A stretch of 1,249 bases of DNA from Escherichia coli (GTDB lineage: Bacteria > Pseudomonadota > Gammaproteobacteria > Enterobacterales > Enterobacteriaceae), in assembly GCF_003334255.1 (NCBI RefSeq), contig NZ_QOWU01000169.1; one strand, 5' to 3'. The notes under the pieces were generated by a model. It did no database searches, was not told where the DNA came from, and saw only the letters and a list, made by a program, of their open reading frames with translations. Positions 1 through 1,249 of the stretch are shown piece by piece. Positions within the stretch are counted from its first letter, which is position 1, and every line of letters begins with the position of its first letter. The translations under genes were made by a program, and so were the position numbers.

Positions 1-277
1 ATACATGATCAAATACTCCTTACATAAATAAGGTGAACAAATGGAACTTAAAAAATTGATGGAACATATTTCTATTACACCCGATTACAGACAAGCCTGG
101 AAAGTGGTGCATAAATTGTCAGATATTCTACTGTTGACTATTTGTGCCGTTATTTCTGGTGCAGAAGGTTGGGAAGATATAGAGGATTTCGGGGAAACAC
201 ATCTCGATTTTTTGAAGCAATATGGTGATTTTGAAAATGGTATTCCTGTTCACGATACCATTGCCAGAGTTGTATCC
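1..277 (+). repeat. Direct repeat copy A: 5' UTR plus first 79 codons of an ISAs1-family/H-rpt transposase gene; the repeat may extend upstream of the window
   Basis: Manual alignment of 1-277 against 381-657 (offset 380) gives 13 mismatches in 277 bp (~95% identity). Homology ends abruptly after position 277/657. The first 40 bp (1-40 vs 381-420) are identical. Confidence 0.9.
30..36 (+). promoter_or_regulatory. Shine-Dalgarno sequence (AAGGTGA) for the 41-295 ORF
   Basis: AGGTG core at 31-35, a 5-nt spacer, then ATG at 41. The identical motif sits before the copy B start. Confidence 0.6.
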
Positions 278-295
278 CAGGGAAAGATCACGTAA
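41..295 (+). CDS. Truncated ISAs1-family (H-repeat-associated) transposase N-terminal fragment, 84 aa; probably an inactive remnant
   Basis: ORF from the track ([84 protein letters not shown]). Residues 1-79 are collinear with the N-terminus of copy B. After codon 79 the sequence leaves the repeat and gives 5 unrelated residues (QGKIT) and TAA at 293-295. From memory the N-terminus resembles E. coli H-repeat-associated proteins (YhhI/YdcC/YbfL type); the 84-aa size is reminiscent of ybfQ, but this is unverified. Confidence 0.65.
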
Positions 296-380
296 CGCTA
301 CTTTTTTGTACTAAATAATTCGCATTTTATGTTTAAAAATTGAGATATTCCTTATTACCTAAAGCTGTTTTTCATAGCTT

Positions 381-657
381 ATACATGATCAAATACTCCT
401 TACATAAATAAGGTGAACAAATGGAACTTAAAAAATTGATGGAACATATTTCTATTATTCCCGATTACAGATAAGCCTGGAAAGTAGAGCATAAATTGTC
501 AGGCATCCTACTATTGACTATTTTTGCCGTTATTTCTGGTGCAGAAAGTTGGGAAGATATAGAGGATTTCGGGGAAACACATCTCGATTTCTTGAAGCAA
601 TATGGTGATTTTGAAAATGGTATTCCTGTTCACGATACTATTGCCAGAGTTGTATCC
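381..657 (+). repeat. Direct repeat copy B (partner of 1-277)
   Basis: Same alignment as copy A. Mismatches relative to copy A lie at copy-A positions 78, 79, 92, 106, 108, 123, 124, 127, 133, 144, 167, 211 and 259. Confidence 0.9.
410..416 (+). promoter_or_regulatory. Shine-Dalgarno sequence (AAGGTGA) for the copy B transposase start
   Basis: AGGTG at 411-415, a 5-nt spacer, then ATG at 421. Identical to the copy A site. Confidence 0.6.
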
Positions 658-1249
658 TGTATCAGTCCTGCAAAATTTCACGAGTGCTTTATTAACTGGA
701 TGCGTGATTGCCATTCATCAAATGATAAAGACGTCATTGCAATTGATGGAAAAACGCTCCGGCACTCTTATGACAAGAGTCGCCGCAGGGGAGCGATTCA
801 TGTCATTAGTGCGTTCTCAACAATGCACAGTCTGGTCATCGGGCAGATCAAGACGGATAAGAAATCCAATGAGATCACAGCTATCCCTGAACTTCTTAAC
901 ATGCTGGATATTAAAGGAAAAATCATCACAACTGATGCGATGGGTTGCCAGAAAGATATTGCAGAGAAGATACAAAAACAGGGAGGTGATTATTTATTCG
1001 CTGTAAAAGGAAACCAGGGGCGGCTTAATAAAGCCTTTGAGGAAAAATTTCCGCTGAAAGAATTAAATAATCCAGAGCATGACAGTTACGCAATGAGTGA
1101 AAAGAGTCACGGCAGAGAAGAAATCCGTCTTCATATTGTTTGCGATGTCCCTGATGAACTTATTGATTTCACGTTTGAATGGAAAGGGCTGAAGAAATTA
1201 TGCGTGGCAGTCTCCTTTCGGTCCATAATAGCAGAACAAAAGAAAGAGC
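421..1249 (+). pseudogene. ISAs1-family (H-repeat-associated) DDE transposase gene, interrupted by an in-frame TAA at codon 18 (472-474); 3' end lies beyond the window
   Basis: Frame-1 translation from ATG 421 reads [17 protein letters not shown] then stop (TAA at 472-474; copy A has CAA there). The same frame then stays open from 475 to the window end (about 258 codons): ...[258 protein letters not shown]. From memory this matches E. coli H-rpt ORF-H proteins (YhhI/YdcC/YbfL-like). Candidate DDE aspartates fall at 745-747 (VIAIDGK) and 934-936 (ITTDAMG); the catalytic Glu would lie beyond the window. The ORF track missed this frame because it has no stop inside the window. Confidence 0.8.

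Follow-up and report, generated by a model that had tools for sequence, protein, structure and literature searches.

The ochre codon at positions 472-474 of the window (the whole 1,249-nt stretch of Escherichia coli DNA analysed here, from contig NZ_QOWU01000169.1) is best explained as a C-to-T nonsense mutation, converting CAA to TAA (Gln18 to ochre), which makes ybfL a pseudogene and is carried as an inherited allele, a reading to which we give a probability of about 0.9. The window is an RhsC-linked tandem array of H-repeat elements (ISEc1-like, ISAs1 family), and the stop is the already documented reason for the pseudogene status of ybfL; there is nothing new in the lesion itself. The survey presented here places the allele in ~40–50% of complete genomes and shows that it has been copied between two Rhs-linked H-repeat loci, which should be of use to IS annotators and Rhs researchers. 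As ybfL also shows, a pseudogene with one clean lesion is not necessarily the product of an error or of a mutation that is private and very recent.

Identity of the locus

The window is 100% identical to E. coli J53 (record L001) and shows two differences from K-12 MG1655 (L002/L011), at positions 1188 and 1224, both of which are synonymous. The mutated codon corresponds to NC_000913.3 736876-736878, with 736876 the mutated base, and the gene order at the locus is rhsC-ybfB-(Rhs core fragment)-ybfC-ybfQ-ybfL-ybfD-ybgA-phr. The interrupted frame is labelled ‘ISAs1 family transposase; internal stop’ by PGAP and ‘pseudogene ybfL, b0705’ in NC_000913.3, where the feature starts at the TTG at window position 496. 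Nothing on the codon-18 stop itself turned up in a literature search on ybfL and its H-repeat element.

Compared with MG1655 ybfL, the J53 hybrid assembly has seven synonymous differences between CDS positions 768 and 903 (up to L001 5323). All seven sites carry the yhhI base, and two of them (1188 and 1224) lie inside the window. This yhhI-type patch reflects either gene conversion with yhhI as donor or an artefact of polishing between repeats.

Organisation of the H-repeat array

Within the window, a 277-nt direct repeat (1-277 and 381-657, 95% identical) marks two H-repeat copies, both on the plus strand. Copy A (1-277) is the 5′ part of an H-repeat (ISEc1-like) element whose left end lies upstream of the window; the junction read in L001 shows element position 379 as its last, with the copy B left inverted repeat starting at the very next base. 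It carries ybfQ (b4514; 41-295, plus strand), an 84-codon ORF annotated in NC_000913.3 as ‘inactive transposase YbfQ’, which starts at the ATG at position 41 and consists of the first 79 transposase codons followed by five codons contributed by the copy B inverted repeat. Codon 18 of ybfQ (92-94), homologous to the TAA at 472-474, is CAA (Gln).

Copy B, the ybfL-bearing element (278-1249, plus strand), is represented by positions 1-972 of its 1290 bp, the remainder lying beyond the window; in J53 its left inverted repeat starts at L001 4278 and its right inverted repeat ends at L001 5567. The left terminal inverted repeat, CAGGGAAAGATCACG (278-292, plus strand), agrees at 14/15 positions with the reverse-complemented right end (CAGGGAAAGATTACG), and the right end closes the 1290-bp element 10 nt after the ybfL stop. 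In copy C, bearing ybfD, ~22 nt are missing from the start of the left end, and an internal deletion puts a stop at codon 254. The layout of the array is thus A[1-379]-B[1-1290]-C[defective], in one common orientation, and with copies A and C abutting copy B on either side, no ordinary target sequence is readable around it in which a target-site duplication could be sought.

The junction between copies A and B, at 277/278, coincides with the first base of the copy B terminal inverted repeat. Because copy A ends exactly at this terminal repeat, the truncation of ybfQ looks transposase-made, through insertion into, or deletion next to, an element, as opposed to a random duplication.

Both copies contain a terminator-like hairpin, TCGGGGAAACACATCTCGA, followed by a T-run, at 189-207 and 569-587, inside the 5′ part of the transposase frame; the window holds three terminator-like sites, compared with 0.6 expected by chance. 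An Rfam search of the window, at E-values up to 1, returned no structured RNA, and a promoter scan of the window was uninformative, with five sites against 4.3 expected by chance.

The interrupted reading frame

The ybfL frame starts at an ATG (421-423) preceded at a distance of 5 nt by the Shine-Dalgarno sequence AAGGTG (410-415, plus strand), which forms a duplex of -4.9 kcal/mol with the 16S 3′ end. The residual translatable ORF (421-474, plus strand) comprises 17 codons and a stop, the ochre TAA at codon 18 (472-474, plus strand) standing where ybfQ, ybfD, yhhI and ydcC, the ydcC of strain 2/0 included, all have CAA (Gln). Beyond it, codons 19-276 of the transposase frame (475-1249, plus strand) are open throughout, and since 258 codons without a stop from the TAA to the window edge would occur with a chance of only ~1e-8 at the base composition of the window, this is a real gene frame. 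In J53 and MG1655 the frame extends to a stop after codon 378, and codon 18 is the sole in-frame premature stop. The same single lesion in a 378-codon frame is found in EC416, ET670, EC21Z-101, isolate 410, FAHZZU6724 and FAHZZU6014, and copies linked to yafV (see below) likewise have stops at codon 18 and at the frame end only.

The earlier note on this DNA, made from the window sequence, had described this TAA as codon 18 of the ORF from ATG 421 against CAA in copy A, with a frame open for at least 258 codons to the window edge, and reading the sequence confirms both. Its prediction of a stop near 378 aa beyond the window was borne out in J53 and MG1655 with no other lesion, so that its central claim, that one ochre codon interrupts an otherwise full-length transposase frame, holds for what is an ISAs1 family gene annotated as a pseudogene with an internal stop.

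As to where translation might resume, the note was right that the next in-frame ATG, at codon 94 (700-702, plus strand), is without a convincing Shine-Dalgarno sequence, but it overlooked earlier TTG codons. The first possible restart is the TTG at codon 26 (496-498, plus strand), the start chosen for the NC_000913.3 feature, and further in-frame TTG codons at 514 and 592 also precede ATG 700. Pairing at these candidates ranges from -2.5 to -3.8 kcal/mol, compared with a window-wide background mean of -2.0 and -4.9 kcal/mol at the true start; TTG 496 and ATG 700 are both weak by this measure, and none of the candidate restart codons has a convincing Shine-Dalgarno sequence. Codon 26 is TTG in ybfL and ybfQ, and TTA in yhhI, ydcC and ybfD.

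Transposase family and domains

For profile searches the protein was used with Gln restored at codon 18. It matched the ISAs1 transposase model NF033564 with 414.6 bits (cutoff 70; E 2.5e-124), and contained both PF13808 DDE_Tnp_1_assoc (aa 8-94, window 442-702; E 1e-31) and PF01609 DDE_Tnp_1 (aa 102-343, from window 724 onwards; E 7e-31). ISAs1 family elements have ends that begin CAGGG, as catalogued in ISfinder. Copy B, at 1290 bp and with terminal repeats matching at 14/15 positions, fits the ISAs1 pattern of a single-ORF element of about 1.2–1.5 kb with short terminal inverted repeats, and the ybfL element is a defective member of this family (H-repeat/ISEc1) whose transposase gene is interrupted by the codon-18 TAA.

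YbfL and its intact paralogues share the motifs AIDGK (107), TTDAMG (170) and HVENK (304) without a difference, and past codon 43 YbfL differs from intact YhhI at four residues (101, where Asn is specific to ybfL, 147, 198 and 225); for the candidate catalytic aspartates that the earlier note called intact, this is an indirect check. A search for a solved-structure homologue on which to map the DDE catalytic residues found none. Between ybfL and the intact yhhI and ydcC genes, dS is 0.14–0.17 and dN/dS is 0.06–0.08; nearly all ybfL divergence therefore arose under purifying selection.

Distribution of the ochre allele

The population was queried with 265 nt (window 296-560) spanning the TAA. 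Of 5348 matching records, 2187 showed at least 99% identity, and in a sample of 60 evenly spaced matches, 20 were 100% identical, hence TAA. Among the 30 sampled matches with at least 97% identity, TAA was present in 26 (20 exact, six read) and CAA in none; the six confirmed by reading were H51, H53, H55, H56, H57 and H58, and the exact match H31, which was also read, has TAA. Further genomes that were read and carry the full-length copy have TAA as well. The CAA version of the query was exact in two records only (357900 and VCSW8), its other top matches showing a one-base mismatch. Altogether, the TAA haplotype is found in about 2,100–2,700 independent complete E. coli assemblies, or ~40–50% of complete genomes, and also in the reference genomes of MG1655 and W3110; as an allele it is ordinary and inherited, present in the genome and not an artefact.

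In 357900 and VCSW8 (L006 and L007, both 3177-3179), which are unrelated, CAA sits on the ybfL-type haplotype (G28, F35, S43); it may represent the ancestral intermediate, have arisen by true reversion, or have come from a neighbouring copy by short conversion. A search of one genome per species, the E. coli representative included, with a 46-nt ybfL-type haplotype carrying Y at the mutated base gave 0 exact matches, a result uninformative on the age of the mutation.

Several arrangements of the RhsC locus carry the allele: the three-copy form of K-12; ybfQ and ybfL without ybfD (isolate 410, EC21Z-101, FAHZZU6014); ybfQ with a ybfL/ybfD hybrid (120899, H1); and a single hybrid copy without ybfQ (2013C-4081). 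It is also found at a second locus, where a full-length H-repeat with TAA lies beside yafV/ivy, an Rhs site absent from K-12, as seen in 20.1 (L016 1644-2780), O104:H4 2011C-3493 and STEC309 (L017 and L018, both 2644-3780). Over positions 1-260 the yafV-linked CDS is the same as ybfL, save for one private change in 20.1 (L016), and it differs further up- and downstream. Because the yafV-linked copy has both the TAA and this ybfL-identical stretch, the comparison implies that a nonsense-bearing block was exchanged between paralogous copies or loci.

Age, decay and exchange

Around the stop (-60 to +260), carriers at the RhsC locus differ at 0–3 of 320 positions and yafV-linked copies at 3–4 of 320; in a wider block (-143 to +260), RhsC-locus carriers differ by 0–2%. 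A stop results from 4.4% of random substitutions in the 1080 nt of frame downstream and, with indels assumed at one-tenth of the substitution rate, a divergence of 0.1–1% predicts 0.16–1.6 additional disabling events. Because the low divergence among carriers predicts so few, the intact downstream frame is unremarkable, and its absence of decay, which the earlier note had taken as a sign of recent inactivation, a strain-specific SNP or an error, needs no special explanation.

The claim of ‘no secondary decay’ holds for K-12, where the downstream ybfL frame was found to contain no further lesion, but does not hold for H1 and VREC0761, which carry frameshifts. These are 1-nt deletions in TAA copies, at CDS 554 in H1 (L020 1626-2383) and CDS 56 in VREC0761 (L022 1626-2761), and could be either real secondary decay or assembly indel errors. 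Recent inactivation is likewise a matter of the yardstick: the lesion is young relative to H-repeat paralogue divergence (dS ~0.15), but older than the spread of the allele to ~40–50% of genomes.

Exchange among copies has been extensive. Marker patterns reveal frequent patchwork exchange among H-repeat copies, refreshing their sequence, and the differences among TAA-bearing alleles are mostly conversion patches from other copies. In many strains, the C-terminal third of ybfL has been replaced through recombination by the deleted ybfD version. Over codons 1–79, the ybfL-specific changes comprise ~6–7 synonymous against three missense and the stop. This pattern, which shows no excess of missense changes of the kind that follows long neutral evolution, is consistent with a young lesion and is no proof of lost constraint.

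The Rhs-linked ybfC is 0–0.18% diverged between strains, compared with 3.5–3.9% in the adjacent core ybgA-phr (L001 3246-3815 against 6597-8521; L004-L007). On these divergences, the accessory segment has a common ancestor much younger than that of its surroundings, which fits spread of the whole segment.

Recombination between ybfQ and ybfL

The segment duplicated in ybfQ contains the stop as well as all three missense changes specific to ybfL (D28G, C35F and G43S). In FT130 (L012 1644-2780) and 2 HS-C (L019 2644-3780) the array contains one element without the 380-bp unit, with an intact 378-aa ORF (WP_124047000.1), followed by ybfD. The markers in both are ybfQ-type through codon 73 and ybfL-type thereafter, and ~30 records match the recombinant junction at 99% identity or more, FT130 and 2 HS-C being the two read, both intact. 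The downstream part of the recombinant has the private markers of K-12 ybfL, and its flanking genes encode K-12-identical proteins; from these we infer both its origin in the K-12 form, through a deletion between the repeats, and the direction of that change. The TAA allele would thus occasionally be removed by recombination with the neighbouring ybfQ fragment.

Proposed history and alternative explanations

Built on the observed sequence, annotation, population distribution, family membership and dN/dS, a likely course of events can be outlined in which ybfL is the middle, full-length copy of a three-copy H-repeat array downstream of RhsC. Ribosomes would start at ATG 421, with its good Shine-Dalgarno sequence, and stop after 17 residues, leaving the remaining 361 codons, with most of the DDE_Tnp_1-associated domain and the whole DDE domain, untranslated. 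The mutation was probably a late event in a copy with a history of strong purifying selection, and the allele may afterwards have travelled along with the RhsC element and have passed between H-repeat copies by recombination or gene conversion. The downstream frame would still be open as too little time, counted in substitutions, has passed, and exchange with intact paralogues would overwrite parts of it. Both the lack of a protein product and this order of events are what we infer. A common allele at two loci, with a downstream frame that is usually intact, would be equally compatible with the frame having kept some use.

The alternative in which the gene is really intact and the TAA reflects a private SNP or faulty sequencing or assembly, causes that the earlier note had allowed for, is almost certainly wrong. 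An error would indeed look like one lesion in a frame with no other fault, and the J53 hybrid assembly does have a suspicious yhhI-type patch further downstream, but the same TAA is present in MG1655, in W3110 and in at least about 2,100 independent complete assemblies; it recurs across several structural contexts and at a second locus. The population counts (2187 records at 99% identity or more, and only two with exact CAA) rule out both error and a strain-specific SNP. It is very unlikely that the frame is still used, through restart at TTG 496, TTG 514, TTG 592 or ATG 700, giving a shortened ISAs1 protein that might act as an inhibitor or regulator. TTG 496 lies only 22 nt past the stop and is where the original K-12 annotation began the ORF; codon 26 is TTG only in the ybfL/ybfQ lineage; and most sampled carriers of this common allele have an open frame downstream. 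Against this, Shine-Dalgarno pairing is weak at every candidate codon, low divergence already explains the open frame, and the loss of the C-terminal third in many strains, with extra frameshifts in two, argues against selection on the frame.

An even smaller probability attaches to the stop having been favoured by selection, for example by silencing a harmful transposase in a manner reversible with ybfQ via the 380-bp deletion. The frequency of the allele, its presence at two loci, the confinement of the stop and of G28, F35 and S43 to the ybfQ-duplicated segment, and the exact ybfQ/ybfL recombinant with an intact ORF in FT130 and 2 HS-C, with ~30 records matching its junction, could all be read in this way. 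However, the frequency is explicable by hitch-hiking with the RhsC element, given the low divergence of ybfC relative to the core; recombination between direct repeats is expected anyway and bears no sign of regulation; intact yhhI and ydcC coexist in the same genomes, such that silencing one copy gains little; and the E. coli W genome paper states that no transposition of H-repeats has been observed (PMC3032704). No less doubtful is the suggestion that the TAA copy is not inert, with a 17-codon leader followed by restart at TTG 496 to yield a shortened protein that dampens the intact H-repeat transposases, and with ybfQ as the route back. If true, such dampening would account for the commonness of the allele and its copying to a second Rhs locus, and the ybfQ fragment would provide a recombinational return to an intact gene, as in the ~30 genomes above. 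An inherited nonsense allele in a pseudogene remains the preferred reading.

Comparison with related systems

The Tn5 inhibitor protein (Inh) and the restart fragments of lacI early-nonsense mutants provide analogies for internal starts. As in these systems, an early stop followed by in-frame starts could in principle yield an N-terminally shortened protein from ybfL; unlike them, the candidate starts of ybfL pair weakly, and many strains have further lesions.

Closer relatives are found in the array itself. Both ybfQ and ybfD belong to the same element family as ybfL, in the same orientation and directly abutting it, but they are disabled by truncation or deletion, and both have kept CAA at codon 18. 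The intact paralogues YhhI (b3484, RhsB-linked) and YdcC (b1460, RhsE-linked) share with ybfL a length of 378 aa, the same domains and the same element ends, and their proteins are ~97–98% identical to the ybfL product, with 8–11.5 amino-acid-changing differences; where YhhI and YdcC have CAA at codon 18, D28, C35 and G43, ybfL has TAA, G28, F35 and S43. The K-12 ybfL (b0705) is the same gene as that in the window, with identical position, flanking genes and internal stop, the two synonymous sites that set them apart (1188 and 1224) both being of the yhhI type in the window.
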